Assembly (NCBI RefSeq): GCF_964355755.1
Contig: NC_092670.1
Coordinates: 11,766,795 to 11,830,794 of the forward strand
DNA from: Antedon mediterranea
Taxonomy: Eukaryota > Animalia > Echinodermata
DNA length: 64,000 nt
Reading direction: 5' to 3'
Position 1 is the first letter of the stretch, and the number at the start of each line of letters is the position of its first letter. Of the stretch, positions 33,032-64,000 are shown in pieces. A program made the translations under genes and the position numbers. The notes beneath the pieces were generated by a model. The model was given only the letters and a program-made list of their open reading frames with translations. It ran no database searches and was not told the DNA's origin.

Positions 33032-34052
33032 ATTAATAATAGTCTTTAATTTATCATTATTCATATCACTTTTCATTCACTTTAAAACATTTAATTTTCT
33101 TTTCTATGTAGAGTTTGTGATTAAAAAAAATTATACATAAGAGCAGCGAAACTCAAAAAGCGAAAACTTGTGAATGGCTGCCAAAAATAGAAAATAAGGT
33201 CACCACCAGGGCCAGGAGAGATTATGGTGCTTGGTTTTTCTTTCATGATTAATTAGATTTTAATGCTAATATAAATTTGTGAAAATTGTAACTAGGCCTA
33301 TACTGTACATCCAATAATGTAATTATTTTAGAGAAAATGACCAAATAATCTAAGTTGAATATTTTTTGGAATGTGTACTTTACAGTACTTAGTACCGTTA
33401 TGTTGAAAATTCTTCCAAAGCAATAACGTTCAAACCAACGTTCACACAATTAAACTTTTTATGTACATATTTTAATAAATAATGTCTTTCTTTTAATAGG
33501 TATTAACACACTTGAATGAACAATATGAGCAAGTAGTGGAAAATGGTGAAGAAATCAACACAAAATGTGGTAGCAACATTCACAATATTTATTTGAACGT
33601 TTCTTACTATGACACTTTAAAATGGATGAACAATCACAGAAGACAAGTGTCATATTATTTATGTTGTGATTCTCTGTGTTTAGAGAAGGATGCTTTAGAC
33701 CAGGTCCGCCTTATATTATTAGCCAATCAAAATCGTATAATTTTTGGAGGGAAAATGTTATCCTCCTCTGAAGCCTAAAATTTGCATATCCAGTATAAAA
33801 GTGGAATGTAATAGATATTAGAGAAGAAGAGAGAATAAGATCAGAGTAGATAAACGGAAAGATGATAAAGAGAATATTAACGCTTGACTGGTAGTGGTAG
33901 AAAGATGTATTAATCGAATTACAAGGAATAAAAGTTCTAGTTGAGTTAAATATACCTTTTGTATGAGTTATCATTCAGAAACAGCTGTGTACGTCGCGTG
34001 GAAATATATACGCCTGAGAAAGCTCGGAACCAACTAAAATAAATTCACTACA

Positions 34053-34066
34053 TGGTGGCAGCGGTG
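34053..34066 (+). promoter_or_regulatory. Primer-binding site complementary to the tRNA-Leu 3' end
   Basis: TGGTGGCAGCGGTG directly follows the 5' LTR and is the reverse complement of CACCGCTGCCA-CCA, the 3' end of metazoan tRNA-Leu(AAG/TAG). Confidence 0.85.
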
Positions 34067-34585
34067 AAAATTTTTGTTTACATGATTTAAGTATCAAGAA
34101 GAAGAAGAAGAAGTGACAGTGCCTACTCTACGGGCCTGTTAAATCAGTAACCAAAAAGTTAAATGGTTACGAAGATCTGGATTCCTGACAGTTTTTATAC
34201 CGTGCGTTGTTTGGATATTACAACGAAGAAGAAGTACTGTTGAGCTCAAGGTACCTGCTCAAGACTGCTGGATATTCATCGGAGATACTTATATATTCAC
34301 CGAGGTCTGAAAGAAGAAGACTGAAGTAACAGAAGGAAGCCCAGTAAAGTTGGAGAAGATTTGCAAAGCTGACTTTGTAAACTATTTTTTATTTCGAAAG
34401 TAAATATTTGTACGGAGCGAACTTGGAACGTTGTTTGTGACTTTGAAGTAAATTAATGTCTTATATTGTATTGCATTTAAGAATTTATGTGGATTTCATA
34501 TTAATCAACAAGGTAATACAAATACTTTTATAACATATTTTGTATACATAAGTTTACATATTTCATTAGTAAAATTGTTATTAGC

Positions 34586-37500: not shown

Positions 37501-39198
37501 GGGGACAAAGTGTTGATATTCCTTCCAGTAGGAAATAGTAAGTTAGACAGTAAATGGCAAGGCCCCTTCACTGTTACAAAAAAGGTCAATGATGTAAATT
37601 ATGAAATATACATAGGAGGTAGAAGAAAAGAAAAACAAATTCTACATGTTAATATGTTAAAGAGATGGTATGATAAAGTAGAAATAAGTAAAGATGGTTA
37701 TTATGTAGTAACAAATGTTCAGTCGATAGAAGTCCATGACAATGAGTTAGATAGTGAAATAGACATAGGATTGTCTTATCATCAATCACAAACATGGAGA
37801 GATGTTAACGTTAGTAGTAATTTAAATGATACACAAACTAAACAATTAACAGAATTGTTAAAGTACCAACAGAATGTATTCTCGGATGTACCAGGTAGAA
37901 CTCACTTAGTGACACATGAAATTAAGACTAATGGTGAAATGCCTATAAGGCATAGGGCATATAGAACGCCCCAAGCATTAAAGGGTAAATTGAAAGAGGA
38001 ATTAGAAAGTATGTTGGCTATGGGTATAATAGAACCTACTGTTAGTGCCTATGCTGCACCTATTATTGCCCTGAAGAAAGGCCAGAATCAAATTAGAATG
38101 GTGACAGATTTTAGATCACTAAATAAGACTACACAATTTGACCCTTATGTTATGCCTCGCATAGACGAATTGTTGGATGAGGTATCATCCGCAATATACT
38201 TAACTACGTTAGATCTAACTAAAGGATTTTACCAGGTGCCTCTGGATCCTAAGACCAAAGACAAATCAGCATTTATTACACAATTTGGACAGTATTGTTA
38301 CAATGTACTTCCATTTGGTATGCAAAATAGCTCTAGTACTTTCCAAAGATTAATGGATAAGGTATTAAAAGGTACTGAGGGATATGCTAAGGCATATATA
38401 GATGACATATGTATTTATAGTCAAACTTGGAAAGATCATATTTTTCATTTGAATGATGTATTAGAAAGATTAAGTAGTGCTGGATTGACAGCAAAGCCTT
38501 TGAAATGTAAAATTACCTATGCACAGGTAGAATTTCTGGGGCATAAGATTGGTAATGGAGAAATTAGACTCATGATTGATAAGGTTGAGGCTGTGGAAAA
38601 GTTCCCCAGACCTTTGTCTAAGAAACAAGTCCGATCATTTCTCGGATTAACTGGCTATTACAGAAAATGTGTACAGAACTATGCCGATATTGCTAAACCA
38701 TTGATTGATTTAACTTTAAAGAGTAAAAGTAATACCGTTAAGTGGAATGAACAATGTGAAAATGCCTTTGTAACTTTAAAGAAACGACTTACTGATGATA
38801 ATGTATTAAAAGCCCCAAATTTTGATAAGATGTTTTTATTGCAAACCGATGCCTCAAATTATGGCATAGGTGCAGTGCTGAGCCAAATAGATGGTGAGGG
38901 TAATGATTATCCCATTGTGTACTTAAGTAGAAAGTTATCTGTACATGAGCAGAGATATTCTGTGCCAGAAAAAGAGTGCCTCTCTATTGTTTGGGCTATC
39001 AATAAACTTAAGTATTATCTGTATGGTTGTGAATTTCAAGTTCATACTGACCACCAGGCATTGAGATGGATGGACTCAATGAAGGGTGCCAATGTTAGAC
39101 TTATGAGATGGGCTCTGTTTTTACAAGGATATAAATTTAAAGTTATTTACAAGAAAGGATCATTAAATGGAAATGCAGATGGATTAAGCCGTGCATAA
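34586..39198 (+). pseudogene. Gmr1 gag-pol with one in-frame stop (35357-35359) and one frameshifting deletion (~36962)
   Basis: ORFs 34586-35359 and 35372-36979 share a frame (ME*ALDKMP). After PDAIPL the integrase continues in another frame (RAETVARALIEVFTRVGLPEEIVHDQGTNFMS). Confidence 0.92.
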
Positions 39199-42100
39199 AT
39201 AATATTATAGATGTGTTATTTGTAGATAGTTTATAGTAAAATGGTTTTAAATGTTAAATTTTGGAAAGATTGACACAATCTTTTTCCCAAAAAGGGGAAT
39301 GTCATATTATTTATGTTGTGATTCTCTGTGTTTAGAGAAGGATGCTTTAGACCAGGTCCGCCTTATATTATTAGCCAATCAAAATCGTATAATTTTTGGA
39401 GGGAAAATGTTATCCTCCTCTGAAGCCTAAAATTTGCATATCCAGTATAAAAGTGGAATGTAATAGATATTAGAGAAGAAGAGAGAATAAGATCAGAGTA
39501 GATAAACGGAAAGATGATAAAGAGAATATTAAGGCTTGACTGGTAGTGGTAGAAAGATGTATTAATCGAATTACAAGGAATAAAAGTTCTAGTTGAGTTA
39601 AATATACCTTTTGTATGAGTTATCATTCAGTGACAGCTGTGTACGTCGCGTGGAAATATATACGCCTGAGAAAGCTCGGAACCAACTAAAATAAATTCAC
39701 TACAACAAGCTATTGCTGTAATGCCACAATCAACACATCAATTAATAGTTGAAAATAAATTGTCAACAATAATGCAGAAATTCAATGAAATATACTAGTA
39801 ATTAACTCATTTTTTACTGTACTGTACTGTAAATCTTCACACATTAAAATTATGGTGATTTTATCTCATGTACTGTAGTAGTATTTTTTATTTATTTAAT
39901 GCTGTATACAAATGTTATTGCTCGAATTATGAAAACTATACAACATTTTAAAAGCTGGAAAACAACCAACACATTTGCCTAATGCTTTATGATAGTCATC
40001 CAATATTTATCTTGTGTTCCACTACCGAGTCTACTGCCAGTTGCCTTTAAAATGCTGTATGGGTGTAACTTCTGTTCCAGTCTTCATTAGCTTAAGTCTA
40101 TAAATTGAAAAACAATGATGTATAAATACAAAAGTCAAATAGAAAAGTTAAATATTTCACAATTTATTGCATACATATAATTATTATTTCTGTACATGAA
40201 TCTGAAGTTTTCAATTTGGGGTACTAATGTACAGTAAGGAATCCCTGAAAAGTGCATCTCCTCCCTAAAAAAGGCCTAGTCTAATTACTAGTGTTTTCGT
40301 TTTGGTTGCTATCAACAACAATCTATTCTACCGTCAACTTCTTTGGTACTGTATGCTGATCATTTTCCAAATGTTCGTTTTTTGTCATCAGTCTTTTTTA
40401 GACTTTAAAATTAATTCGAGCTCCAAATGTATATCAGTGGTACATCAACATAGTAGGCCTATTTCCTGTAGCTAGTTGTGGAGTGATGGCTTAGCTAGGT
40501 GAGTACGACATATATGACCTAGCTAGGCCTCAAAGTGGGTTCCCGTCTACTTTTCTGACCCGATTATCTGCCTGCCTACAGCTGCTGCTACACTACACTA
40601 CACAGTAGTAGTAAACTACAGTACTAACTAGGCCTAGTAGGCCCTACTAGATAGTAGAAGTAGGCTTATATTATAGCCCTAGCCTAGATAGCTAAGCCTA
40701 TAACTATACGCCAAAAACTATTATAGGAGGATGTGTCATTCATCTAAAATAGAATTCTACTTACCAGCAAATTAACGGCAGAGCTTTTTACATCATACGA
40801 TCAGGGAAACCCCAGCACTTTCTTCTGTTCTTCGCACATGTTTGTTTACGTGGTGAACAGATCGTATCTCCCCTGTTTGGATACTCATTAACATATCATG
40901 AATATTTATGAGCTGTTAGCTAACCATCGTTATTTTGGAATTTCTGAACTTATGAGTTCGAAAAAATGGTAAACTTATTTTGATTTTTTATAAGCGAAAT
41001 CAATATTTTTTTCGGATTTTTTTTCGGCGAAAGTGAATAACTTTATTATAACTACAAAATGGTCTATTCAAAATTTGATTTTTTTTCATCTTTATTTTTC
41101 ATGTTTTGGGGGACAATACAACTTTAATGCTGATTTATGGCTAGGCGTAAAATAAGACGTGGTAGGAGGATGATTGCTGGCAGCGAAGCAGCAATAAATG
41201 GGCCCAATCTTGTTAGCAACGTCGCATGACATGATTTATATTACGACCTGTTTTAACGAGAGGTCAAAATATACCCTGAGGACACTTCCAACACGGTAAC
41301 GGCGACCGGGAATCCACCAAATGTTAGGATTCAGCCAAGTAGCCTTTTTTGCAATTAAAATCTCATTACACGGAATCTCTATGGGCCCGTTTGCGATTTT
41401 TTTTTTCGTACATAAGTTGGGGACCCCCTCATGAAACGTCACAAAATTAACATGAATAATTCATCAGTTAAATTTTCTTGTTCCGTGTGCATCCAAGCAT
41501 ATAGCAACAAGAAGTGATTACACAACTGCGATACGATACTTTTACAATTTATTGCATACATATAATTATTATTTCTGTACATGAATCTGAAGTTTTCAAT
41601 TTGGGGTACTACTAATGTACAGTAAGGAATTCATGAAAAGTGCATCTCCTCCCTCAAAAAGGCCTAGTCTAATTACTAGTGTTTTGGTTGCTGTCAACAA
41701 CAATCTATTCTACCGTCAACTTCTTTGGTACTGTATCCTGATCATTTTCCAAATTTTTTTTTTTGTCATAAGTTACTCTTTTTTTAGACTTTAAAATTAA
41801 TTTGAGCTCCAAATGTAATATCAATGGTACAGTAACATAGTAGGCCTATTTCCTGTAGCTAGTTGTGGAGTGATGACCTAGCTAGGTGAGTACGATATAT
41901 AGGACCTAGCTAGGCCTCAAAGTGGGTTCCCGTCTACTTTTCTTACCCGATATCTGCCTGCCTACAGCTGCTACACTACACAGTAGTAAACTACTAACTA
42001 GGCCCTAGATAGTAGGCTTATATTATAGCCCTAGCCTAGATAGCCAAGCCTATAACTATACGGCAAAAACGTCTAGTTTGCGATATATAACTATTATAGG

Positions 42101-42211: not shown

Positions 42212-43843
42212 CATGGATTAAAGAATAGATGGATATGCATCGACGTGAGATCAAGGGTTCTTCGACTCTCGCCGACAGACCGCGAACCGCCCACAATGTT
42301 ACAGTTTAATTAACCGCATGGTAACATCGAAACGGTCGCGTGCCCAATATATTGTTTACTGTACATGTGCAACGACATTTAACCTTGTTGGCTACGCTTC
42401 TTTCGCGCGTTCTTTGGTGGCATGATGTTTTTAGCGCTAGCAACAATACATATTTGAACAGTATAATCAGTGGCGTAACGGCTAAGTGCGCTCACTGGCT
42501 AAACCCAGGGGCCCTGAAGCTTGGGGCCCATGAGCAGTGCCCAGAGGAACAGGCATAAAATATGTCGAAAATGCTAAAAACGTCCGAGGCCTCGATCTTT
42601 GAAACTTGGAGGGCCACTTAGGTTTCCTAAACAAGTGGCTTCAGGCCTCTGCCTCACGCCACTGAGTATAATGTTTATTGAAAACAGTTATTAAATTACA
42701 TTGTATGTTATTGTGAAGACCCTAGTGTAGGTCTACTTCATCAATATACCAGATAAAAACAATACTATATTGTTATTGGCTTAGAATTGTAGATGCTATA
42801 ATTGTAATTAGTATAGGTTTCTGCCGCAATTGATCTACGCTAATGTTTTTATGACATTAAAGTAGCATTTTATGAGACAATAACTAGTTGTTGTCTCAGC
42901 GCGCCTACATGTAAAATTACAAAATCAGCAAGGATACTAGGCCTTCTAGGCTTACTAGTAAACCATATGATTTGCCGACATTGATACTGCCTAGGTAGGC
43001 CTAGGCTAATCTTAAGTGTAGTAGATACAATGCGTAATCATGATCTATATACTCACCGTTGTCTTACTTCTTGTGTGAATAATAATAGGTACTTCGTTTG
43101 TTCGTGATTAAGTTTGCTCTGCGTTTACTTTTCAAAACGACCGCTAGGTAACGTATCGCAACTATACATAGCCAGCCAATCCCGGATCTGGGATCGCTGT
43201 TTTCATTCAATTAGGCCCGGTGATTGGATGTGATGTGGATGACATAACCATTAGCCAATCACCAGGCACTACAATTTAAATATAATCACATCGATAATTA
43301 AGGAGATTTATGAAGAAACCACTGCTTAGCCATATTTTAAAAACACGATTGTTGTATGTGTGAACACCGGCCACGCTAACAACATACATGGTCAAATGCA
43401 TAATTTAATATTCTATAGATTAACGCAATTTTAATGACAGAAGATGGCAGGCAAATAATAATAATTCAAATAAAAATTGCATATTTTATTAATATTACCA
43501 ACTACTTAAAATTACCAGTCGTAAGAAAGTGAACTTTTCGTAGTCCGATTGTGATGAAACTAAAACAGAATTGTTCAGCAATATATTTTTGTTGTCAATT
43601 AATCATCGACGCAGACATGTCAATAGAACATTCAGACTGCGCATACGATTTCTACATGGTTACGTTTTGGTCTAAAAAAATGTAACAGTTGATTCGCAGC
43701 GTTCTACAGAGGGCCGCGGTTAGAGACACGGAGTTCAATGAGCGTGTTTGTTTGATTGGCAGCAGTGCTTTAGTATAGGCAAGCGCGTTATAAAATCATT
43801 TGATGTCACCGTCGATGCATACCCTTCTATTCTTTAATCCATG
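42212..43843. mobile_element. P-superfamily-like non-autonomous element
   Basis: 34-bp TIR catggattaaagaatagatggatatgcatcgacg (2 mismatches) and 7-bp TSD gttcgtc. The empty site is visible in the paralogue near 40827 (gttcttc-gcacatg). Confidence 0.85.
42468..42664. mobile_element. hAT-type MITE nested in the P-like element
   Basis: CAGTGGCGT ... ACGCCACTG with 8-bp TSD agtataat. Confidence 0.85.
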
Positions 43844-44232
43844 GTTCGTCGCACATGCTTGTTTATGTGGTGAAGATAACAGATCGGATCTCCCCTGTTT
43901 GGATGCTCATTAACATATCATGCATATTTATGAGTTGTTAGCTAACCATCGTTATTTAGGAATTTCTGAGCTTATGAGTTCGAAAAAATGGTAAACTTAT
44001 TTTGATTTTTTATAAGCGAAATCAATATTTTTTTCTGATTTTTTTTCGGCGAAAGTGAATAACTTTATTATAACTACAAAACGGTCTATTCAAAATTTGA
44101 TTTTTCTCATCTTTATTTTTCATGTTTTGGGGGACAATACAACTTTAAAATATAAGCATAGGTGTTAGATAATTATTATCCAGCACGTTTGTTTTTAGTC
44201 ATATTATAATAAAGTTGAAATAATGCTGTAAC

Positions 44233-44274
44233 CAGGGAAGAGTTAAATTACAATTGTAATTTAACTCTTCCCTG
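44233..44274. mobile_element. 42-bp perfect palindrome with CAG...CTG ends and 7-bp TSD (duplicate at 47159-47200)
   Basis: ctgtaac|cagggaagagttaaattacaattgtaatttaactcttccctg|ctgtaac. Confidence 0.75.
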
Positions 44275-45587
44275 CTGTAACTGAGTTTAGTGATTATTTA
44301 ACAGTCGGAGAGCCGCGTTGGGAAATATGACCGTTATCGCTGAATTTTCGACTTCGCATGACGTCATAAATTTTAGAAGCCCTCTCTCGGCACAGAAGCG
44401 TCAACGTTTCGCGCGAAAACATTAGTATAAAGTATAGGCTACGTCATTTTATAGCTGTTTAATAAACATTAATAGGCGTAAAATTAACCATATATGGTAA
44501 GATCAGTTCCTTATATGTTTAAGATGTCACAGGTCACCTAATTTTCTGAATAATTTGTTGGATTTGTTGTCAGTGACAGTTTCTTTCCAAAGTTCGTGTG
44601 CAGCCGTCAAAACTGAAGTTTTCTAACAGTTGTTTGTTTACAAATTTCCCATTAGTGGGATTTGCATCCCATACAGTGAATTACCAAAAACTCGACGTAT
44701 ATGGATAAAGTAAGTATCAATAGTCTGTTTTACGTTAAAATTGGCTTGAAACCCTATTTAAGCTTCGATTACAGACTGTGCTTGTTATTAGCTGAAGGGT
44801 CAGATCCCTTCCTGGAATTGACATTCGTTATATTTTAGTTACCTAGGAGTACGTTATGTTGTAATTAATAAATAAAAATAATTCTGCTCTTTAGTGCTAC
44901 TTTAAATCGTTGGGAAGAATTAATGATGCCTGTCTATTTAGCTTAAAATCAAGAAATGTCGTTGTGTCGCGACAGTTTGTTATAAATAAGTTAATCTTGT
45001 ACATTAAAACTAGTATTCAGTTGTGATTGATAATTGCTATACAGCTGCAAATTATACAACAACTTGTAGTGCTGGTTTATCTATTCTAAACTTATATAAA
45101 CCACAATGTATTCTTGCTAGTAACAATATTCATAAACATAAAGTTATAAAAAGTACAAGAACATTATTATCGATATTTTTCGTAACAAATAAATCGATCT
45201 GGTAAGGCTTACAAGCAAACTGGAAGTTTGATAAAGCAAGCATTCATTGTTCTGCTTTAGGCCTACACACCTTGAGAAAAAATAATGAAATCGTGAATAA
45301 CAAACAGTGATACAGAAACTGGTGGTGCTTGTTTTCTATCTTTAAGTTTTAAATAGCACAGTGTATTATTGCTCCAATATGAATAATATAAGGAAGTACA
45401 AAGTACAATAACAGGCCTCTCATTGTTACCGATCTTTTTATCTAATGAACAAATCTTTCTAGTACCGGTAAATCGGAAGTGTGGTAATTGTAAAAGAAAA
45501 AATGAAACAAATTTATGCTCCAAATATTATTTGTTTTACAGCTTTATATAAGGCAGCTTTAAAAGTTCAACAATATTTACTGATTAA

Positions 45588-45794
45588 TTTTTAGTCGCGT
45601 GGACGCGACTCAATAGTTCACTATGTCGGTCGGTCGGTCTGTCGGTCTGTCTGTCGGTCCGGTATCACTATGCGTTTTATCGCTTTTCTGTACTTTTTGA
45701 ACTGTTTTGATATACAGAAAAGTTTTAAAGTACATTACTTTTTGAAAGTTCATTTTTTTCTGAGAGCACGCGACTTATGGCTGTTGGCCTTGTT
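45588..45794 (+). mobile_element. DINE-1/HINE-like Helentron-associated element
   Basis: 5' T-run, subterminal IR agtcgcgtg with adjacent acgcgact, (GTCG/GTCT)n microsatellite, 3' subTIR cacgcgact, short ggc...gcc hairpin and TT end. Confidence 0.75.
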
Positions 45795-48513
45795 CATCAA
45801 TGTGTAGCTTATGGAGTAACAAAAAGGAGTCTTGTAAATCAAAATTGCCCATGTTTGACCATTTCAAATTTACTTCATTGATGTCATTTGTAACATTTGC
45901 TACAATAGTGTGATATACTATACAATTATTACATGTTCTTTTAATTTTAAATACAGTTTCATGACAATAAATATCAGCTTTATTAAGTATTTCTTAGTTT
46001 TCATTGAGAATTACCTTCCAGTTCATTGGGATAATGCAGAATCGCACCATACAAACGAAATTTTAATTACTTTCAATTAATTCCATACTTTGTTTCAAGA
46101 TCATTCTGCAAGAGGAAAGATCCTTTGGAATTAGTTACATCTTTAATTGTACGGATACCTGCATTCCACCACAAGTTTTGAATATTAAAAGTTCTTTTAA
46201 CGAAACAGCAATTGTAAAGTACCTGACAATTATATTTCATTTGCAGTATCTGGATTTAGTGAATAATGGTATACACTCCAGGCTAGCAGTACGGTTCTAG
46301 GACACCTACCCCCTAGACAGTTACCCCCGGATGTTTACCACCCGGACAACTACCCCCTTAGGACAACTACCCCCCGGACAACTACTCCCCGGACAACTAC
46401 CCCCTTAGGACAACTACCCCCTTAGGATAACAACCCCCCGGACAACTACCCCCCGGACAACAACCCCCTTAGGACAACTACCCCCTTAGGATAACTACCC
46501 CCCGGGTAACTACCCCCCGGTCAACTACCCCCTGGACAACTACCCCCACCCCAGACATCTAGGACTATATTTATGTTCAATCTTTTACTTTTGTGGTCTA
46601 AAAAAATGTAACAGTTGATTCGCAGCGTTCTACAGAGGGCCGCGGTTAGAGACACGGAGTTCAATGAGCGTGTTTGTTTGATTGGCAGCAGTGCTTTAGT
46701 ATAGGCAAGCGCGTTATAAAATCATTTGATGTCACCGTCGATGCATACCCTTCTATTCTTTAATCCATGGTTCGTCGCACATGCTTGTTTATGTGGTGAA
46801 GATAACAGATCGGATCTCCCCTGTTTGGATGCTCATTAACATATCATGCATATTTATGAGTTGTTAGCTAACCATCGTTATTTAGGAATTTCTGAGCTTA
46901 TGAGTTCGAAAAAATGGTAAACTTATTTTGATTTTTTATAAGCGAAATCAATATTTTTTTCTGATTTTTTTTCGGCGAAAGTGAATAACTTTATTATAAC
47001 TACAAAACGGTCTATTCAAAATTTGATTTTTCTCATCTTTATTTTTCATGTTTTGGGGGACAATACAACTTTAAAATATAAGCATAGGTGTTAGATAATT
47101 ATTATCCAGCACGTTTGTTTTTAGTCATATTATAATAAAGTTGAAATAATGCTGTAACCAGGGAAGAGTTAAATTACAATTGTAATTTAACTCTTCCCTG
47201 CTGTAACTGAGTTTAGTGATTATTTAACAGTCGGAGAGCCGCGTTGGGAAATATGACCGTTATCGCTGAATTTTCGACTTCGCATGACGTCATAAATTTT
47301 AGAAGCCCTCTCTCGGCACAGAAGCGTCAACGTTTCGCGCGAAAACATTAGTATAAAGTATAGGCTACGTCATTTTATAGCTGTTTAATAAACATTAATA
47401 GGCGTAAAATTAACCATATATGGTAAGATCAGTTCCTTATATGTTTAAGATGTCACAGGTCACCTAATTTTCTGAATAATTTGTTGGATTTGTTGTCAGT
47501 GACAGTTTCTTTCCAAAGTTCGTGTGCAGCCGTCAAAACTGAAGTTTTCTAACAGTTGTTTGTTTACAAATTTCCCATTAGTGGGATTTGCATCCCATAC
47601 AGTGAATTACCAAAAACTCGACGTATATGGATAAAGTAAGTATCAATAGTCTGTTTTACGTTAAAATTGGCTTGAAACCCTATTTAAGCTTCGATTACAG
47701 ACTGTGCTTGTTATTAGCTGAAGGGTCAGATCCCTTCCTGGAATTGACATTCGTTATATTTTAGTTACCTAGGAGTACGTTATGTTGTAATTAATAAATA
47801 AAAATAATTCTGCTCTTTAGTGCTACTTTAAATCGTTGGGAAGAATTAATGATGCCTGTCTATTTAGCTTAAAATCAAGAAATGTCGTTGTGTCGCGACA
47901 GTTTGTTATAAATAAGTTAATCTTGTACATTAAAACTAGTATTCAGTTGTGATTGATAATTGCTATACAGCTGCAAATTATACAACAACTTGTAGTGCTG
48001 GTTTATCTATTCTAAACTTATATAAACCACAATGTATTCTTGCTAGTAACAATATTCATAAACATAAAGTTATAAAAAGTACAAGAACATTATTATCGAT
48101 ATTTTTCGTAACAAATAAATCGATCTGGTAAGGCTTACAAGCAAACTGGAAGTTTGATAAAGCAAGCATTCATTATTCTGCTTTAGGCCTACACACCTTG
48201 AGAAAAAATAATGAAATCGTGAATAACAAACAGTGATACAGAAACTGGTGGTGCTTGTTTTCTATCTTTAAGTTTTAAATAGCACAGTGTATTATTGCTC
48301 CAATATGAATAATATAAGGAAGTACAAAGTACAATAACAGGCCTCTCATTGTTACCGATCTTTTTATCTAATAAACAAATCTTTCTAGTACCGGTAAATC
48401 GGAAGTGTGGTAATTGTAAAAGAAAAAATGAAACAAATTTATGCTCCAAATATTATTTGTTTTACAGCTTTATATAAGGCAGCTTTAAAAGTTCAACAAT
48501 ATTTACTGATTAA

Positions 48514-48720
48514 TTTTTAGTCGCGTGGACGCGACTCAATAGTTCACTATGTCGGTCGGTCGGTCTGTCGGTCTGTCTGTCGGTCCGGTATCACTATGCG
48601 TTTTATCGCTTTTCTGTACTTTTTGAACTGTTTTGATATACAGAAAAGTTTTAAAGTACATTACTTTTTGAAAGTTCATTTTTTTCTGAGAGCACGCGAC
48701 TTATGGCTGTTGGCCTTGTT
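48514..48720 (+). mobile_element. Duplicate copy of the HINE-like element
   Basis: Same sequence as 45588-45794 at offset +2926. Confidence 0.75.
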
Positions 48721-48729
48721 CATCAATGT

Positions 48730-51700
48730 GTAGCTTATGGAGTAACAAAAAGGAGTCTTGTAAATCAAAATTGCCCATGTTTGACCATTTCAAATTTACT
48801 TCATTGATGTCGTTTGTAACAATTGCTACAATAGTGTGATATACTATACAATTATTACATGTTCTTTTAATTTTAAATACAGTTTCATGACAATAAATAT
48901 CAGCTTTATTAAGTATTTCTTAGTTTTCATTGAGAATTACCTTCCAGTTCATTGGGATAATGCAGAATCGCACCATACAAACGAAATTTTAATTAGTTTC
49001 AATTCCATACTTTGTTTCAAGATCATTCTGCGAGAGGAAAGATCCTTTGGAATTAGTTACATCTTTAATTGTACGGAAACCTGCATTCCACCACAAGTTT
49101 TGAATATTAAAAGTTCTTTTAACGAAACAGCAATTGTAAAGTACCTGACAATTATATTTCATTTGCAGTATCTGGATTTAGTGAATAATGGTATACACTC
49201 CAGGCTAGCAGTACGGTTCTAGGACACCTACCCCCTGGACAGTTACCCCCGGATGTTTACCATCCGGACAACTACCCCCTTAGGACAACTACCCCCTTAG
49301 GATAACAACCCCCCGGACAACTACCCCCGGACAACAACCCCCTTAGGACAACCACCCCCTTAGGATAACTACCCCCCGGGTAACTACCCCCCGGTCAACT
49401 ACCCCCTGGACAACTACCCCCCCCAGACATCTACCCCCTCCCTTAGGACTATATTTATGTTCAATCTTTTACTTTTGTTTACAATAATGAATAGTAATTC
49501 CTCAAAGTAACGAATTAAAATATAGTTATTAATTCCTATTATACACTGTTGCAGAGTCAGGTTGTTGAATGGTCTGGGTGGTAGTTGTCCGTCCGGGGGG
49601 TAGTTGTTCTAAAGGGATAGTTGTCTGGGTGGTAGTTGTCCAGGGGTTAGTTGTCCTACGGAGGTAGTTGTCCTAAAAGATTATTTGCCCTCGGAGTATT
49701 GTCCAGGTCCAGGAGGTAGTTGTCCTACGGGGAGTATTGTGTCAGAGGTAGTTGTCCGCGGGGTAATTACCCGGGGTGGGGGAGAATTGTCCTGGGGTAA
49801 TTGTCAGGGGGTAATTGTTCCTAGGGGGTAATTGTCCGGGGGGTAGTTGTCCAGGGGAGTTGTCCTACGGAGGTAGTTGTCCTAAATGATTATTTGCCCT
49901 CAGAGTATTGTCCAGGTTCAGGAAGTAGTTGTCCTACGGGGAGTATTGTGTCAGAGGTAGTTGTCCGCGGGGTAATTACCCGGGGGGGGGGTAATTGTCC
50001 GGGTGGTAATTGTCCGGGGGGTAATTGTTCCTAGGGGGTAATTGTCCGGGGGGTAGTTGTCCAGGGGGTAGTTGTCCTAAGGGGGTTGTTGTCCTAAGGG
50101 GGTAGTTGTCCGGGGGGTATTTGTCCGGGGGGTAATTACCTGGGGGGGGAGTAATTGTCCGAGGGATAATTGTCCGGGGGGGGGGGTAATTGTCCGGGGG
50201 TTATTTGTCCGGGGGGTAGTTGTCCTAAAGGGGTAGTTGTCCTAAGGGGGTAGTTGTCCAGATGGTGGTTGTCCGGGGGTAGTTTTCCGGGGGTAAATGT
50301 CCAGGGAGTGAATATCCGGATACGTAGCGATACATCTCTATAAAATGTGGATAATTTTGTAAGCAGAGGAGAATATGTTTTTCTCACAAATGGCCTCAAA
50401 CTCTATGGTTAAAAAAACTTTCCATTTTGCATCCCCATCATCCAGGTACCGTTTTATCCAACACAATTTAAGAGAATGGATGTAACTCGAAATATGTGAC
50501 ATTTTTAAACCGCCCTTGTTTTGTTTTCCATCCCAAAGAAAATCAAAGAACACATTTTGTAGTTTGTTAATATATTCTACATCAGGTGTTGGTAAATTTG
50601 AAATTGAATTATATGATAAAATTGGTAATGCCAAAGACTTGATTATTAATACTTTTCTAATCAAAGATAAACCTCTTAGTTTTCACATGTTGAGAACGCT
50701 TTTTATTCGATCCAATTTATTTTCAAAGTTAAGTGTAACAAGTTGATTAGCGTTCCCCGAAACATATACTCCGAGGTATTTGATTGGCCCATCTGTCCAA
50801 AACAAATTCTTGGTACAATTTTAAAATTGGTATTGGTAAAAGTGCCTAGTCTTAAAATATTACTTTTATCAAAGTTGTCATTTAGACCAGAAAATGTAGC
50901 AGTTATCAAGAATTTCTATTGCTGTATTCAGTAAATATTCATCCTGCAAGAAGAACACACAGTATCATCTGCTAGTTGATTTATTCTTATCAGTATTTGT
51001 AATGGTAATACCTTTAAAGTGTTTATTTTGTTTCACTGATATCTCAAGCAATTCTGCCGCAATAAATAAATAAATATGGAAATAAGGGCAACACTGTCGT
51101 AGTCCCCTCGATGGTTAAATAATTCGAGGTAAAGCCATTATTAACTACACAGCTTGAAATATCAGTATACAACATTAATTTAAACCAGTTTTTTTTATCA
51201 TTTCTCCAAACCAAATTTGTCGAGGAATTCTTTAACAAACTTAATCTTATCGAAGGCCTTTTTGAAATCAACAAATAATAACAAATTATTTAAAAAAAAA
51301 CGCTAAAGAAAAACATTTAAAAATGTTTTTCTATAGCGTTTTTTTTTTTATCTAATACAAGACGAATATTTTCTCTATGTAGCGATTTAAAAAAAAAAAC
51401 GTTTGGTCCAGGTTTATTATATTTGCCAACGTTTCTTTCATTCGTGTAGCAATTAGTTTTGCTATATTTTTGTAGTCTACGTTTAGTAGCGATATTATTG
51501 GACGCCAATTTTTTAACTCTGTTGGATTTTTTTCTCCTTTTGGTAATAAAGATATAACTCCTCTTCGTTGAGATAACATACCTGTATGTTGGGAATATGA
51601 AATTGATTGCATTAAACATACCTAACAACATTCCAAAACATTTTATAAAATTCTATAGGCAGAATATCAGTACCATAAGGAGACTTATTATTTTTCATAG
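48730..51700 (-). mobile_element. Highly degenerate Tx1/L1-clade LINE ORF2, interrupted by a MITE
   Basis: RGVISLLPKG..LKNWRPI.SLLNVDYK, SCVVNNG, QLADDT, KVLIIKSLALP, FFDFLWDGK..GGL, and FYRDV/LLAW split by the insertion, then WWNAGFRTIKDV. The 3' part is duplicated at ~45800-46290. Confidence 0.85.
49214..50324. mobile_element. TA-flanked foldback MITE with (GGACAACTACCCCC)n left arm and (GGGGGTAGTTGTCC)n right arm
   Basis: TA|CGGTTCTAGGACA ... ATCCGGATACG|TA. The Tx1 sequence resumes on both sides. A left arm alone is also present at ~46292-46565. Confidence 0.8.
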
Positions 51701-55210: not shown

Positions 55211-56994
55211 AATCTTGCATGGATTACTCTCGGTTTTCCATCTTGTTTAGGCTTACTGGGTGCACGTTTATGTTGTTTATGAAATGGTTAAAAGAGCTAT
55301 TGGGAGGCCTAATAGATAATACCAACAATACTAGTTTTGGTAGATTTTGTTACCGTAGGCGTCCATCATAAATAAATTACAAATTTTGTAGATACTGATG
55401 TTCCTTTATTTATTCTCTGAACTATCTCTTGTATCTCTACAGATTACAGTATCATTAGCAACTTGAATAAACACCGTGAAAACTTGTAGCCTTATTGGAG
55501 CCTATGGTAAAGATACTTTTAACAATGATTATCTCTAAACTTTATGTCATAACAAAATGTCTTATTCTCTCTTATCACTTTTTATCTATCTGAACTCTAG
55601 AGGGCCTCCTGTAAGTAGGCTGCAATTACACTCCCACCCAAATCATCTATGATTTAACCTTAACTCCCACCCTTGCCAGAATAAACACAAGTAATGCAAA
55701 ACTGGAAGTATATTAACAATATTTACCAAAACTATAAAGAATAAGTTAACAGTTTGTATTTTTGAATTCTTTTCGTTCACTTGTTGAAACTCGACTTTTA
55801 TATTTACAATTTGTTCCTTTAATTCTTTTCCTTGATTTTCAATCCAATCTTTATTCCGATTCTGCTCCGTCGATACCTTCTCTTCAGATATATCATTTAT
55901 TCCTTTGAAGAGCTTTTTCGTTTCTTCCTCTAGCATAATCTCATGCTTTTCAGTTAATTCATCTGTGATTTTCTTTGTAACAGCTTCAATCTCTTCTGCA
56001 TGAGATTCTGCTAACTGCTGTCGAATGTTCTGGAATTCTTGAACAAATTCGTTCTCTTTGTCCGATTTTTCAGTACAGAATTGAACCTTGAAATGGTCTT
56101 CAATCTTGCATGGATTACTCTCGGTTTTCCATCTTGTTTAGGCTTACTGGGTGCACGTTTATGTTGTTTATGAAATGGTTAAAAGAGCTATTGGGAGGCC
56201 TAATAGATAATACCAACAATACTAGTTTTGGTAGATTTTGTTACCGTAGGCGTCCATCATAAATAAATTACAAATTTTGTAGATACTGATGTTCCTTTAT
56301 TTATTCTCTGAACTATCTCTTGTATCTCTACAGATTACAGTATCATTAGCAACTTGAATAAACACCGTGAAAACTTGTAGCCTTATTGGAGCCTATGGTA
56401 AAGATACTTTTAACAATGATTATCTCTAAACTTTATGTCATAACAAAATGTCTTATTCTCTCTTATCACTTTTTATCTATCTGAACTCTAGAGGGCCTCC
56501 TGTAAGTAGGCTGCAATTACACTCCCACCCAAATCATCTATGATTTAACCTTAACTCCCACCCTTGCCAGAATAAACACAAGTAATGCAAAACTGGAAGT
56601 ATATTAACAATATTTACCAAAACTATAAAGAATAAGTTAACAGTTTGTATTTTTGAATTCTTTTCGTTCACTTGTTGAAACTCGACTTTTATATTTACAA
56701 TTTGTTCCTTTAATTCTTTTCCTTGATTTTCAATCCAATCTTTATTCCGATTCTGCTCCGTCGATACCTTCTCTTCAGATATATCATTTATTCCTTTGAA
56801 GAGCTTTTTCGTTTCTTCCTCTAGCATAATCTCATGCTTTTCAGTTAATTCATCTGTGATTTTCTTTGTAACAGCTTCAATCTCTTCTGCATGAGATTCT
56901 GCTAACTGCTGTCGAATGTTCTGGAATTCTTGAACAAATTCGTTCTCTTTGTCCGATTTTTCAGTACAGAATTGAACCTTGAAATGGTCTTCAA
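55211..56994 (+). repeat. 891-bp tandem duplication spanning the flank, 3' LTR and ORF end of the second BEL element
   Basis: 55211-56103 is repeated at 56102-56994 with AA microhomology at the junction. It creates a third LTR at 55348-55630. Confidence 0.93.
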
Positions 56995-59838
56995 CTTCTT
57001 CTACTTTGGGTTTCATTTTGCGATCAATTTCAGCAACAACTTCAGAACGCTGTTGGTTTAATGCAATGCGATGGATATCTTCTTGATGGGCACTTTCATC
57101 TTCAAACCTTTTCCGATATTCATTTTCCAATCTTTCTTTTTCATCAATAAACTGGGTAACTCTTTCATCTAACTCTGAAGTTTTCTTCTGCTTTTCTTGG
57201 TTAGCTTCATCAAGCTCTCGATGAAGTTGCAAATTTACATCTTCTTTTTTTCCATTTTCTCTGTTAGTTCCTTGTTGTGATTATTAAGAAGTGCAACTTG
57301 ATCTTCGAAGTCTTTTTGGATGTTCTGACAAGCCTCTAAGTCCATCTCTTTCTCATCTAATTGGTCTTGGAGTTCCTTTAAATTCTGTTCTAATGCATCT
57401 CTAATTTTGTTATTAGTTTCAGCATCTTCTTCACATTTCTTTTGCAATTCTTGCATTTCATTCTGGTGTCTTTCCTGCAGCTATGACTTAATCATAACAA
57501 TTTGTCGTCCATAAGTCTCATCAAGTTCTGCATGTAGTAAAGCCAATTGTTCACTAATGTTAGGTGGATTAGACGCTACAGCCTGTTGAAGTTGTTTGTT
57601 CATATAAGCAAGTTCGTCATCTGATTTCCTTTTAACCAGATCTTTTTCTTCTTTAATTTCTGCTAACTCATCATTTTTCTTAGCATACTTTGTGGCTAAA
57701 TCCTGCAATAGTGTCTCTTTCTTAGTGACAGTCTCTTGTAACTTGATAACCTGCATTTGTGCTTCAGTCATCTCGTGAGCTGAATCTCTCTCGTTTACAT
57801 GTAGACTTGTTGGATGTCTCCTTTGGCAAATTTTACAAATACTTTTCTGGTTACAGTTCCTTGACACATGGCCATGTTGTAAGCAGCTGAAGCATAGACC
57901 ATTTTGCTTGATGTATTGCTGTTTTTTGGTTTCAGGTTTTCTGGCAAACGCTCTGCAGTCACTTAGGTGATGGTTATTCATTTTACACATGAAGCATGAT
58001 GGCATTCCACTGATACTGGTGGCTAGCGTTTGAGATTGGTTTCGATATCTTGAACTTTTTTCTGTGAATTTTGTTTCATTTTCTGGTATTAAGGTAACAG
58101 GATCGCAAACAATTTCAGCTTCGGTCGTCAAAAATGTGGAAAAGTCATTGAATGTTGGATAACTACCCTTGATTTGCATAGCGCTCACTGCGTTTCTTCG
58201 CCATCTATTCACTAACCAATCTGGTAATTTTTGAAGAATTTTCCGATTTTCTCTGCTGTCATTAAGAACTTCCAAGCCTTTCATTTCCTTCATTGCTATG
58301 TTGCATTGGTTCAGAAAGTCAGAGAGTCGCCTAAGGCCATTGTAATCTCTTGCTTGAATCCTTGGCCAGCTGTCTAATTTGTCTCTAAATGCTTCGGAAA
58401 CTATAAATGGATTTCCATATCTTTTTTCTAAAACTGCTTTAGCGTTTTCATAAGCATGTTCACCTTGTAGCAGAAGGTATCCACTGACAACTTCCTTTGC
58501 TGGGCCTCCTATGTATCTCTTAAGGTAGTGAATTCTGTCTGCTTTAGAAATTCCTTTATTTTCGATTAAACATCTAAAGGATGCGTTCCAATCATAGTAC
58601 TTAAGAGGATCGCCATCGAATATTGGTGGCTCTGGTGCTGGTATGCGGTTCATACTGAAGGCTGAAAAAAAGGCTTCTGCTAAAGCGTTTAAGTCTGTGG
58701 TACTGCTAGATTGATTTTGAGGCATTGTCGGTTGGGCTGTTGTTGCTTGTGTCTGTGTCATTAGAGGTTGAGGTTTGGTTAGGTTGCGAAACCTTAGTGC
58801 ATGATCATTTGAGGTTTGGTGTGGTGTGGTCATAATTTCTCGATATCCGTTCTGAATTTCCTGTTGAATTGCATCAACTCGTGCATTCTCTACAGCTGCA
58901 GCTTGTTTAGCCTCTAAAACTTTGAACTCTGCTTCAGCTTTGGCATGTTCTGTTCTTTGCTGTGCTTCCCGCCTTATTTCTTCAAGCCTTGCTTCTGCTT
59001 TCTTAATTTCCATTTCAGCTTCCTTTGCTGTAAGGTCTGCTTTCTGTTTAGCCATTTTTTCAGCAAATTGAGCAGTTTTGTTGGCTGCAGCAGCATTCGC
59101 CACGGCTTGAGCTTTAATGCTAACAATAGATCTACATGAACTCTTTGATGCTGCAGATTTTGAGGCTTGACACTCAAGGGCTAATGCATGTGCCTTATCC
59201 ATAGCACTTGTTATACTAGCTTTGATGGAGTTGGCAATGGTGAGATATATGTTCTCATTCTCCAGGTGATCTTTGCGATGAATACCATCTCTATCTTGTG
59301 CATACAATTTATTCAATACGCACCAAGCATCACTATATTCCTTTAATGCAGCTTTAGCTTTGCATAATGCAGTTTGTATCTCAAATACGTCGCTTGGAAC
59401 ATCTTCTAGTTCACTTGATGCTTCTTGAGCCTTTCTCTGAGTTTGACTCAACAGTTTTACTTCAGTAGCAATGCTAATTGACAGGTCCTTATCTGTAGGG
59501 CGTCTCTCACTCTGTTCTCTTAGATTCATTGAGTTTTCATCAGCTAAGTTTTCACTGTTACCGTAGGCGTCCATCATAAATAAATTACAAATTTTGTAGA
59601 TACTGATGTTCCTTTATTTATTCTCTGAACTATCTCTTGTATCTCTACAAATTACAGTATCATTAGCAACTTGAATAAACACCGTGAAAACTTGTAGCCT
59701 TATTGGAGCCTATGGTAAAGATACTTTTAACAATGATTATCTCTAAACTTTATGTCATAAAAAAATGTCTTATTCTCTCTTATCACTTTTTATCTATCTG
59801 AACTCTAGAGGGCCTCCTGTAAGTAGGCTGCAGTTACA
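56239..59838 (-). mobile_element. Non-autonomous BEL/Pao LTR element, gag fused to a captured coiled-coil segment, no pol
   Basis: 283-bp TG...CA LTRs at 59556-59838 and 56239-56521 (3 differences). 5-bp TSD gattt. PPT tgggtgggag, and GTGAAAA after the 5' LTR. Gag has PPIFDGDP, RYGNP, KLPDWL and C-C-H-C/C-C-H-C/C-C-H-H knuckles. Confidence 0.93.
56534..59577 (-). pseudogene. Gag / coiled-coil (AKAP9/pericentrin-like) fusion ORF, ~1010 codons, broken by one stop (57481-57483) and one homopolymer frameshift (~57245)
   Basis: ORFs 59577-57481 and 57456-57235 are in one frame (KS*LQERHQNEMQ). One extra A in the A-run joins the third piece (EKKEDVNLQLHRE). The coiled coil starts right after HPTSLH. 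Confidence 0.8.
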
Positions 59839-60200
59839 GATTTGTCCTCTGAATTTGGCACGATAGATCACGACATCCTTGTCAGTCATTTTTAGAGGGA
59901 ATTTGGTATTACTGGCTCTGTTTACATTGGGTAACTAGCTACCATCAAGACCGTTATAGTAGAGTTTGTGAACTTGGTGAATACTCTAGAAACCATATTT
60001 TCCAGTACGGTGTTTCTCTGAGGGGTCTATGGTTGAACCTCTTATTTTCACTGTGTATGATCAACCTATCGCTGATATTATTAAGCGTTTTGATGTAGCT
60101 TATCACATATATAATACGCTGACGATACACAATGTATGTCAGTTTTGATCATAGGTCGGAGGATGGTTTATCGGCTGCTAAACACAAACTTATTGGGTGG
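59839..60200 (+). mobile_element. Old L2-type RT fragment, the target of the BEL insertion
   Basis: ILVLV|DLSSEFGTIDHDIL reads across the TSD, followed by YGV..GS..PLIFTVY and YADDTQ. Confidence 0.75.
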
Positions 60201-62470: not shown

Positions 62471-63085
62471 ATGGCAACAGGTAATGTTAAAGATTGAAAA
62501 TAACTGATTTCATCTTGCATACCACCAACATTTCAAATTAAATTTCTTTAAAATGTTCTCTTTTAAATAATTTTATAGATTTTACTGTGAATTTAGTGAA
62601 CGTTTCAGGATGGTATGATGACCACAACCTCTTTCGACAGCTGAAAGTGTTATACCACGATTTAATTACAGTAGCGAACATAGACAAAGCCAAGAAAACA
62701 ATAGACTTACTGCACCAATTAATGACATCAGGATATTTGAGTTCAGACAAGCCTTCGTTACTTTACGAAACAATCAAAGTAACTCAAACATTTGAAGTAA
62801 TGAAAGTTGTCCAACAATCTTTCTTCGAAGATCAAGAAATCAAAATTACAACGTTCACTCCATATCGACACTGGATTTTAGATTTCGGAAATGGACTTAC
62901 ACAGGCTGATGTAGAAAACATTGATGCACTGTACAATGGTACTGCGCTAAAGAAATACCAAGATGCTTGGAGTATGATTTTGGATTTTGAACACAGACAA
63001 ATACTTTGTGAAGACAAAATTGAAGAATTTATTACCAGTCTTAACAAAATTGGACTACACTCAAAGGTGGAATGCCTGACTAAAG
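62471..63085 (+). CDS. 5' part of a gene encoding a tandem death-effector-domain (DED)-like protein (coding exons 62471-62480 and 62579-63085)
   Basis: ATGGCAACAG|GT, a 98-nt intron, then AG|AT give MATDFTVNLVNVSGWYDD... The 507-nt exon is symmetric phase 1-1 and ends AAAG|GTATG. It has two helical repeats with DED-like patterns (LKVLYHD..TIDLLHQL..GYLS..LLYETI; FTPYR..L..FG..LT..DV; DAWSMILDFE). Confidence 0.7.
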
Positions 63086-64000
63086 GTATGTTGTAGGACA
63101 AAATTTGCAAAACCATGTTTATTTGAGGAAAACTATGAAAATAGTGAAATCCACATTTTTTCCGAATAGAAGTACCTAAATAATGTAACAAACAAATAAA
63201 ACAACTTAAAAAAATTGTTTGTATAGTTTTCACATTGACCGACTGGCTTCCAACGTTTTATAATCTTCTTAATTATAATAATTACTAATGTTTAATGTGA
63301 ATATTTCTGAAATGGAAACATTGGAATTGTATTTTTATCAATGAAATGGATAAATGGTCTGAATTTATGATTCGAATGATAGACTTGTCATGAGGTAAAA
63401 TATTAATCTATTCTTATTATTTATTTATCAGGTCAAACAGTAGATAAATAAAAATAGACGTTTTTTCCACTCTATCACAGCTCACCTTTGGCATGGGCGT
63501 CTCTATTTGTCATCGAATATGTTCGATTCAAATCTAAATTCTTTGATATTTTTTACGATTAACATTGGACGATCATAACAGTGGTGATGATATCGTGATT
63601 AGGGGATCTAGGATTCTAGCCTGAATTACGGTTCTGACGTGCTATAAAATACTAGTTTATAGTGTTTCAAAAAGAGCGACGTTTCGGAACCATCATGGAA
63701 CCATTCTCAAGATCAAAATGAGTAAAGAAATTATAGTAAATGTCTCTTAATTCGTTTTTGTATTGCATCGAGAACAGTTTAACACAAATAACATTTTCAG
63801 ATGAGTATACCACTAGTATGAACTTTTGCCAATGAGCTATGCTCGACGCGATTATGAGGTCATGTTCCGAATATGAGTACTGTTTCTATAATTTGACAGT
63901 ATGATTTATATATAATTTACACAGTGCTACGCAACACAATTGATTTATATATTCCGTACCACGCCGAGAATGTTGAAGAGTCGCTATCCAATCGAGTTTG

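Follow-up and report, generated by a model that had tools for sequence, protein, structure and literature searches.

A 3.6-kb element derived from BEL/Pao retrotransposons lies at positions 56239–59838, on the minus strand, of the window analysed here, a stretch of 64,000 nucleotides of DNA from Antedon mediterranea. It belongs to a small family, of which it is a broken copy. We consider it fairly probable that in this family pol has been replaced in frame by a piece of a likely AKAP9/pericentrin gene, that the piece was captured by template switching and that the chimera then spread in trans.

Structure of the element and its sister copies

The two LTRs are 98.9% identical (3 substitutions in 283 bp) and have TG..CA termini, and a comparison of contigs revealed the empty insertion site in a related organism, here called organism B. 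A preliminary description of this DNA had reported LTRs of about 99% identity, a 5-bp target-site duplication and a polypurine tract, and all of these were recovered (Table 1). Downstream of the 5′ LTR there is no canonical primer-binding site, TGG being absent from the next 26 nt, and no tRNA gene was found in the 64-kb window. Next to the element there is also an 893-bp tandem copy, 100% identical to its source, that had been missed earlier. It was not seen in the contigs of three runs (X1, X3 and X5), and it is either a private event or an assembly artefact.

The earlier reading of a full BEL Gag without pol is upheld by a DUF1759 region, three zinc knuckles and the result of a Pfam domain search, in which none of the element's three reading pieces matched a pol domain. 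This Gag is 28–52% identical to those of 55 Gag-Pol proteins, each of which carries PF05380. Among the 51 full-length relatives that have the same triple of knuckles, 50 exhibit a protease-like motif at most 150 residues past it, and these run on for 1216–1443 residues further. Because protease, reverse transcriptase (RT), RNase H and integrase are absent, the element is a non-autonomous BEL/Pao derivative and not a full member of the Belpaoviridae.

The reading frame passes without a break from Gag into host sequence, at a junction 5 residues past the last zinc knuckle. The preliminary description had placed this junction directly after the knuckle and had regarded everything beyond it as a single coiled coil. 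The in-frame fusion and the host coiled coil both stand, but the junction is 5 residues later and the post-Gag part is composed of three parts: a main piece of 1073 bp, a second piece of 65–74 bp and about 130 bp from the 3′ end of the element itself. Compared with both host versions, the main piece lacks 18 nt. The second piece likely derives from the same host gene, about 390 nt further down; its comparison with AKAP9-like proteins was not significant, with 17, 32, 21 and 240 of 300 shuffles scoring equally high. Where the parts join, they share only short stretches (2 nt, 9 nt and up to 6 nt), as read from contig ends. The two small lesions proposed earlier are both present in the window copy, as one in-frame stop and one frameshift.

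Read-through of the element's 3′ end yields a 37-aa tail, and 37 open codons arise in 4.4% of shuffles. A hydrophobic 19-mer (hydropathy 2.24–2.4) lies at the end of each of the four copies and might serve as a membrane anchor. Among control tails, 8 of 555 have a hydropathy as high, in a test that was chosen after the tail had been seen.

Sibling copies, whose existence had been left to be checked, were found. The same fusion is encoded at three A. mediterranea RefSeq loci on three chromosome-scale contigs (31.7, 36.2 and 28.6 Mb), with junctions identical to those of the window copy; the siblings are known and compared as proteins only. Two of these three loci encode open 1014-aa proteins, which are ascertained in that RefSeq lists open frames by choice. 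The sibling P0006 lacks the first 125 residues.

Table 1. Positions of features in and beside the element
Feature	Position	Strand	Remark
Target-site duplication AAATC, 5′ side	59839..59843	-	outside 5′ LTR
5′ LTR	59556..59838	-	283 bp; holds first ATG of the ORF (59577)
BEL/Pao Gag, residues 1-597	57786..59577	-	55/55 protein matches carry PF03564 and PF05380
DUF1759 (capsid region), residues 320-463	58189..58620	-	E 1e-14
Three zinc knuckles, residues 528-593	57799..57996	-	last knuckle 5 residues before the junction
Captured host piece 1, likely AKAP9/pericentrin-type N-terminal coiled coil	56713..57785	-	1073 bp; in frame with Gag
In-frame stop	57481..57483	-	in window copy; absent from siblings
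Frameshift in A-rich run	57240..57250	-	in window copy, near 57246
Captured piece 2, likely same host gene	56648..56721	-	65-74 bp, in frame; 8 differences/74 in contig record; depth arithmetic
3′ end common to likely parent element	56522..56653	-	read through to stop 56536-56534
Hydrophobic 19-residue stretch	56588..56644	-	predicted possible membrane anchor; hydropathy 2.24
Polypurine tract	56522..56530	-	just ahead of 3′ LTR
3′ LTR	56239..56521	-	283 bp
Target-site duplication AAATC, 3′ side	56234..56238	-	outside 3′ LTR
Exact 893-bp tandem copy of 56102-56994	55211..56103	-	contains third LTR (55348-55630)

Donor of the captured sequence and route of capture

Sequence comparisons suggest that the donor is likely an AKAP9/pericentrin-type scaffold gene of the host. 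Apart from self matches, the captured part has 3 matches among 1.84 billion (1.84e9) proteins, with E-values of 1e-9 to 2e-11. These include one sea-urchin protein and one sea-cucumber protein named AKAP9; by the names given in the source, P0008 is the only match called AKAP9, and P0007 is called trichohyalin-like. Alignment scores were 305–319, versus maxima of 192–213 for block-shuffled sequences (100 shuffles each). In a profile search, the captured piece attained an E-value of 3e-24, while the best of 55 Gag N-termini reached only 0.002, and the piece aligns to positions 299–450 of the urchin profile, i.e., to the N-terminal region. By both the shuffle and the profile controls, similarity to AKAP9/pericentrin family members exceeds that expected from coiled-coil composition. 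An AKAP9/pericentrin-type donor, as first suggested by a resemblance to the human protein, is thus supported by echinoderm matches, shuffles and profile.

Other searches were less specific. An atlas search returned a cluster of AKAP9 fragments at rank 3 (score 0.90), which we treat as a lead, and otherwise generic coiled-coil clusters; with P0007 as the query, no AKAP9 cluster was among the matches listed. For the captured part, Pfam gave sub-threshold coiled-coil matches only, a PDB search gave 6 weak matches (E 0.34–0.97) and none with the profile, and a word-index search against proteins of 1776–5000 aa gave 0 of 7468 candidates, which is weak evidence. None of the protein searches found an Antedon donor protein. 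The centrosome-targeting domain PACT is C-terminal in the AKAP9/pericentrin family, and no match to it was found in P0007–P0009, which are possibly partial models.

The donor sequence is contiguous in contigs of X10 and X11, organism B included. The X10 contig set is probably DNA rather than RNA, because the intergenic empty site is present in it. Both cuts of the captured piece are inside coding sequence, and no exon junction is crossed. Since the donor is contiguous in host contigs, an intronless piece need not have come from mRNA, and the mRNA fragment that had been invoked is not demonstrated. The chimera junction was not found in the contigs of organism B, which cannot prove its absence.

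A parent or helper element bearing pol likely exists, as pieced together from separate contig ends. In X1, a 4339-bp contig joins the element at 56653 and then continues for about 4250 unlike letters, which is the size of the missing pol, and X5 contigs show the same loose end at 56653. In the X1 contig of Gag, which stops at 57784, the branch falls 2 nt into the host piece. The branches at 56653 and 57784 give the earlier idea of mobilisation in trans a likely helper. No Antedon Gag-Pol was found among the 55 Gag matches.

We propose that reverse transcriptase would have left the parent RNA just past the nucleocapsid, switched to a single large host exon, of which it copied a part, and rejoined the parent close to where pol ends. 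About 387 nt of host sequence would have been skipped in frame, either at capture or later. Because both LTRs and the purine tract were kept, proteins acting in trans could package, copy and integrate the product, which likely spread afterwards through the enzymes of the parent element. Open copies would make a single 1014-aa protein consisting of Gag, coiled coil and hydrophobic tail. The frame was likely kept open because translation that reaches the 3′ end of the RNA, as it does in the native element with its single gag-pol frame, may stabilise that RNA or improve its packaging, and the captured residues themselves would drift meanwhile.

Age of the chimera, its open frame and rival readings

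The captured piece differs from its counterpart in organism B at about 55 of 1073 positions (~5%), compared with 7 of 660 (~1%) in the flanks (Fisher p 3e-6), and because of this difference the chimera has probably been moving for a long time. Among the changes listed in the piece, which number at least 21, 7 are silent and 14 are replacements, where 5.05 silent changes are expected (p 0.22); these changes look close to neutral, with no amino-acid selection found. In the four copies, 11 of 380 columns vary in the piece and 26 of 598 in Gag, which is no clear difference (pairwise Fisher p 0.38). A frame would remain open past three frame-sensitive events, one of them inferred, with a chance of 1 in 27, and past at least 21 substitutions with a chance of 0.30 (0.06 if there were 50). 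The combined chance is about 0.01 or lower, where ascertainment is not yet allowed for and the odds were computed after the fact, since being in frame is what drew attention to the case.

It had been suggested that the fused piece could target particles to the centrosome. This suggestion is weakened because the piece is N-terminal, is not the C-terminal PACT domain and sits behind the nucleocapsid in Pol's place, and we consider such targeting unlikely. It is somewhat unlikely, in our view, that the piece and the tail do a specific job, anchoring Gag at Golgi membranes or at microtubule-organising sites of particle assembly, or close to the germ-line nucleus. The N-terminal position of the piece in the urchin profile is consistent with this, given that residues 159–463 of human AKAP450 bind GM130, target the cis-Golgi and dimerise according to excerpts of PMC3105543, an overlap with the crinoid piece in residue numbers only. 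The hydrophobic end of all four copies and the open frame over a long persistence also fit. However, the changes in the piece are near neutral, its variability is not clearly different from that of Gag, it would probably lie inside the particle, and the tail test was picked post hoc. Equally unlikely is the idea of a parasite of a parasite whose golgin-like Gag, with its new membrane tail, was selected for steering assembly to a favourable site and so out-competes or exploits the helper. It is unlikely, in our estimate, that the piece is a pure passenger, with a frame open by luck and without selection, and with only LTRs and packaging signals mattering. The neutral-looking changes, the two breaks in the window copy and the truncated P0006 agree with a passenger, as does the observation, in excerpts of PMC5131818, that the parental protein's reading frame is preserved in 14 of 17 young Drosophila LTR retrocopies, perhaps only because they are young; but no break is common to the family at ~5% from the host, and the combined chance of the open frame, before ascertainment, is low.

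We consider it very unlikely that open copies serve or harm the host, either through a Gag with a dominant-negative effect on parent particles or through small RNAs against the AKAP9 gene. An intact Gag joined to a bulky foreign sequence would suit the former, and excerpts of PMC13534243 describe captured pieces that gave piRNAs on host genes in Drosophila, within a range that includes the ~95% host identity of our piece. However, several dispersed, slightly different copies suit mobility more than one domesticated locus, and the Drosophila cases are piRNA-pathway genes. With regard to origin only, and in combination with any of these readings, it is somewhat unlikely that the capture was at the DNA level, by break repair from the host locus, or that the element arrived from another crinoid. 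The contiguous donor, the lack of intron loss and the junction not seen in organism B argue for such an origin, and arrival from another crinoid would account for the 5% difference without requiring a long stay. On the other hand, the replacement of pol, the return near its 3′ end and the short overlaps form the pattern reported in excerpts of PMC5131818, a functional gene from a foreign crinoid should differ mainly at silent sites, which 7 of 21 does not show, and the contigs of organism B cannot prove the junction absent. Misassembly of the junction, a doubt raised in the preliminary description, receives almost no credence from us. Although the adjacent 893-bp copy is identical and unsupported by three runs, and an X5 contig spans the junction by just 30 letters, one under the bridging threshold, the same junctions occur in three RefSeq proteins on three contigs, the target duplication is clean and organism B has the empty site; we therefore take the junction to be real.

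Relation to known systems and significance

Host-sequence capture by template switching in LTR elements is already known; a lasting, multi-copy fusion of Gag to a host protein is a new form of it. Defective transducing retroviruses carry a host-protein piece where pol would be, joined in frame to Gag, and depend on a helper. The crinoid fusion resembles them in its Gag-host protein in place of pol, but it has no env and no sign of infection or a growth effect, and its cargo is a structural coiled coil instead of a signalling enzyme.

The LTR-mediated retrocopies of animals (Tan et al. 2016) include, in excerpts of PMC5131818, chimeras of Pao BATUMI and of mosquito BEL18_AG. As in the crinoid element, the internal ORF is replaced, not interrupted, by partial host sequence between two LTRs. 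The retrocopies also have short overlaps at switch points, which the crinoid contig ends suggest too, and more than two switches, and some of them, as the crinoid family likely does, move on as non-autonomous copies with common differences from the parent gene. According to the same excerpts, Drosophila retrocopies are <1% diverged, versus about 5% from the host here, and their frame was judged against the parental protein, whereas here a whole Gag is fused in frame. In addition, the crinoid pol is wholly replaced and several copies hold the 1014-aa frame, and RNA origin was there recognized by intron loss, whereas the crinoid donor is contiguous in X10 and X11. Maize Bs1 (excerpts of PMC5131818 and PMC7264820) is likewise an LTR element with transduced host coding pieces and further rounds of copying, but it belongs to a plant and its pieces come from three unlinked genes, in contrast to an animal BEL/Pao element with one likely donor.

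Compared with the Belpaoviridae (PMC8742986), the 283-bp LTRs fit the range of 0.2–1.2 kb, and the purine tract and a Gag with capsid and nucleocapsid are shared. Unlike members of that family, the crinoid element has no protease, RT, RNase H or integrase, is smaller (3.6 kb versus 4.2–10 kb), and lacks a canonical counterpart of their 18-nt primer-binding site, to which the 3′ end of tRNA-Arg or tRNA-Gly binds. The captured piece is like the AKAP450 fragments AK1 and AK1B (excerpts of PMC3105543) in being an N-terminal coiled-coil part, without PACT, of the same likely gene family; those fragments are engineered human ones, and the crinoid piece begins later, at about residue 299 of the urchin protein.

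For an animal LTR element, the capture of a host gene is documented here with unusual completeness, as donor boundaries, empty site, open siblings and likely helper are all in public data, and one family thus makes it testable whether captured host pieces benefit an element or are simply carried by it. Were the coiled coil and tail to give Gag its location, a retrotransposon would have gained a cell address from its host. Otherwise, the family shows for how long a piece of a host exon can remain open and keep moving, as a source from which new genes may arise. Should the steering reading be true, the family would be an animal retrotransposon counterpart of the retroviruses with Gag-host fusions.

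Structure of the element and its sibling copies

By the criteria of PMC8742986, the BEL/Pao-derived copy at 59838-56239 is a non-autonomous derivative and not a full member of the Belpaoviridae. The differences between its LTRs amount to 1.1%. The first ATG of its ORF (interval 59556-59577) lies inside the 5' LTR, and the RefSeq models of two sibling fusion proteins, P0004 and P0005, start at this point too. No canonical, TGG-type primer-binding site was found after the 5' LTR.

Features of the element and of other parts of the window
Feature	Position	Strand	Details
LTR pair	bounds of 59838-56239	minus	283 bp each; 3 substitutions; TG..CA ends
Target duplication	both outer flanks of 59838-56239	minus	AAATC
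Polypurine tract	immediately ahead of 3' LTR	minus	
Gag		minus	DUF1759 in the element's frame (domain search)
Three zinc knuckles	Gag residues 528-593	minus	
Captured piece 1	57785-56713	minus	1073 bp
Captured piece 2	56721-56648	minus	
In-frame stop of window copy	57483-57481	minus	
Frameshift of window copy	near 57246	minus	
Tandem duplication	55211-56994		exact, 893-bp unit; extra copy downstream of element carries third LTR; 2-nt overlap at joint
Gypsy-type LTR element	33648-39704		405-bp LTRs, 99.3% identical; ACAAG target duplication; order protease-integrase-RT-RNase H
Second, unrelated BEL/Pao element	28181-33031		LTRs 97% identical; ATTAA target duplication
Open stretch	62545-63093		death effector domain, E 1.8e-7, under Pfam's cut-off
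LINE-type reverse transcriptase remnant	507-2364		RVT_1
Tandem arrays	8535-12591 and 43660-49478		80-bp and 64-bp units, plus 2.9-kb tandem duplication, 97% identity

Among proteins of 1776-5000 aa, all 55 Gag matches contain the Pao-specific domain PF05380. The knuckle triple is present in 51 of them, which continue for another 1216-1443 residues after it; 50 of the 51 have a protease-like motif there. Comparison of the element's post-Gag part with the pol parts of these 51 relatives gave zero matches. The last 37 residues of the fusion protein come from the element's own 3' end and include a hydrophobic 19-mer, whose hydrophobicity is equalled by just 8 of 555 control tails in a test chosen after the fact.

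The preliminary description had claimed two small lesions in the long ORF, and these are indeed one stop and one frameshift. Its question of whether sibling LTR-gag-coiled-coil copies exist can be answered from the proteins. With the captured part as query, one of 1407 candidate proteins matched, at 97% identity: P0004, an Antedon mediterranea protein of 1014 aa. P0004 clusters with two other proteins, and the three loci lie on contigs of 31.7, 36.2 and 28.6 Mb. Two of the proteins have 1014 aa; the third starts later and has 889. All three have the same junctions and tail, as read from the protein sequences. Any two of them differ at 5-16 Gag residues and at 0-6 residues of the captured part; the window copy has 17 Gag differences from P0004 and P0005. 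The element is thus part of a multi-copy family, with the fusion at three or more loci, probably four.

The adjacent tandem copy is not seen in contigs of runs X1, X3 and X5, which cross one or another of its branch points unbroken; it is therefore either confined to the assembled animal or artefactual. Elsewhere in the window, the Gypsy-type element has the domain order of Gmr1-like elements. In the second BEL/Pao element, Gag and protease are followed in frame by integrase, and neither RT nor RNase H gives a match; this element is internally deleted.

Identity and boundaries of the captured sequence

A HMMER search over 1.84 billion representatives gave four matches, one being P0004 itself. 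The others are a protein of the sea urchin Lytechinus pictus labelled trichohyalin-like (P0007, 1940 aa, E 2e-11), a sea-cucumber protein labelled putative A-kinase anchor protein 9 (P0008, E 1e-10) and the unnamed P0009 (E 1e-9). Identity to these donor-like proteins is 37% over 120-153 residues, a match that contains the motif named in the preliminary description. Alignment scores are 305-319; the highest values among 100 seven-residue block shuffles of each were 192-213, and reversed sequences scored 148-195. With a profile of five donor-like proteins, the captured piece scores E 3e-24, and the strongest of 55 Gag N-terminal regions reaches 0.002. These three controls rule out a composition effect as the source of the match. 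The donor is likely AKAP9, a name based on one submitter label, an atlas lead (rank 3, score 0.90) and the likeness of the start of P0007 to AKAP9/pericentrin.

We read the boundaries from contigs of five of the 11 listed runs. The empty site is seen in the related organism B, where a 650-bp contig links 55341 to 59838. In two samples of organism B, contigs of 4479 and 4890 bp match precisely the span 56713-57785 (62 differences, 19 gap letters) and continue past both ends; organism A has the same upstream loose end. The 30 host letters past each end of piece 1 are open in the element's frame, as read by hand, and the upstream ones resemble P0008 immediately ahead of its aligned part, so both cuts lie within coding sequence. 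Because the donor is contiguous in X10, an organism B run that is probably DNA, piece 1 likely derives from a single large exon, in which intron loss cannot show. The mRNA source suggested in the preliminary description thus gains no support.

Piece 2 matches a 4948-bp contig in X1, with 8 differences over its 74 letters. The bin depths agree only on the assumption that this contig spans 56713-56742 too (158.93 versus 158.9 reported in X5; 154.1 versus 153.9 in X1). The contig would then be the host's downstream sequence, and we infer that piece 2 arose from it through an in-frame 387-nt skip at a 9-nt overlap. The protein match of piece 2 is not significant, and the organism B contigs do not show this piece.

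A 4339-bp X1 contig joins the element's 3' end at 56653 and continues for ~4250 letters unlike the element, a length that matches the missing pol. The same loose end recurs in X5, and the X1 Gag contig stops at 57784. We read these ends as pieces of the parent, a presumed pol-bearing BEL/Pao element not seen whole. Against window 59555-59839 and 57986-58309, run X10 of organism B has only diverged LTR and Gag relatives with many gaps, and the family itself is not among its contigs.

Age, selection and origin of the fusion

Between the piece and host B there are ~55 differences in 1073 sites, not counting the 7 by which the window copy departs from the X1 contig; the flanks have 7 in 660 (p 3e-6). 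At 21 or more sites, and in one 18-nt gap, the element is unlike either host (B or the X5 minor contigs). Given this excess and the LTR divergence, it is likely that the capture is several times older than the window insertion, or that copying errors accumulated across many cycles. A donor allele that was itself divergent could also account for the gap between piece and host, since X1 and X3 are without a separate host path.

Of the 21 sites listed, 14 are replacement changes and 7 silent, where 5.05 silent ones would be expected (p 0.22). The count does not take in 51 further table rows, nor the break site and the rows that are B-only (2), mixed (2) or copy-private (6). No amino-acid selection on the captured piece is seen in these sites, at low power. 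The frame nevertheless survived the Gag junction, the 18-nt gap and the inferred skip, for which the chance is 1 in 27. For a frame open despite at least 21 substitutions at 5.6% stop risk each, the figure is 0.30 (0.06 for 50), ignoring how the case was picked.

The origin judged most likely agrees with the remainder of the earlier proposal: the parent element would have captured the host piece by template switching, with later movement in trans. We regard this origin and mobility as probable. The frame has likely been held open for RNA stability or packaging, the captured residues themselves not being the reason, and the account with this addition seems reasonably probable overall. PACT is a C-terminal domain, and the captured piece is without it; the piece also sits behind the nucleocapsid and drifts. 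These points leave centrosome targeting as the least supported of the earlier ideas. They also argue against the main rival, in which the piece would have a specific Golgi or membrane role; we consider this unlikely, although human AKAP450 residues 159-463 bind GM130 (PMC3105543).

Comparable cases have been described. PMC5131818 describes capture by LTR elements including Pao/BEL, with multiple switches and onward movement, and PMC3597677 surveys host-derived segments that became fixed parts of transposon consensus proteins, naming one BEL case. Extra ORFs in rotifer LTR elements (PMC5408684), piRNA-gene capture (PMC13534243) and Bs1 (PMC7264820) have also been covered. In mostly open-access literature we found nothing on this element or on AKAP9 capture; the supplementary chimera tables of PMC5131818 and PMC3597677 may contain similar Gag fusions. 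The case itself is real, multi-copy and well bounded, an unusual product of an already known mechanism.
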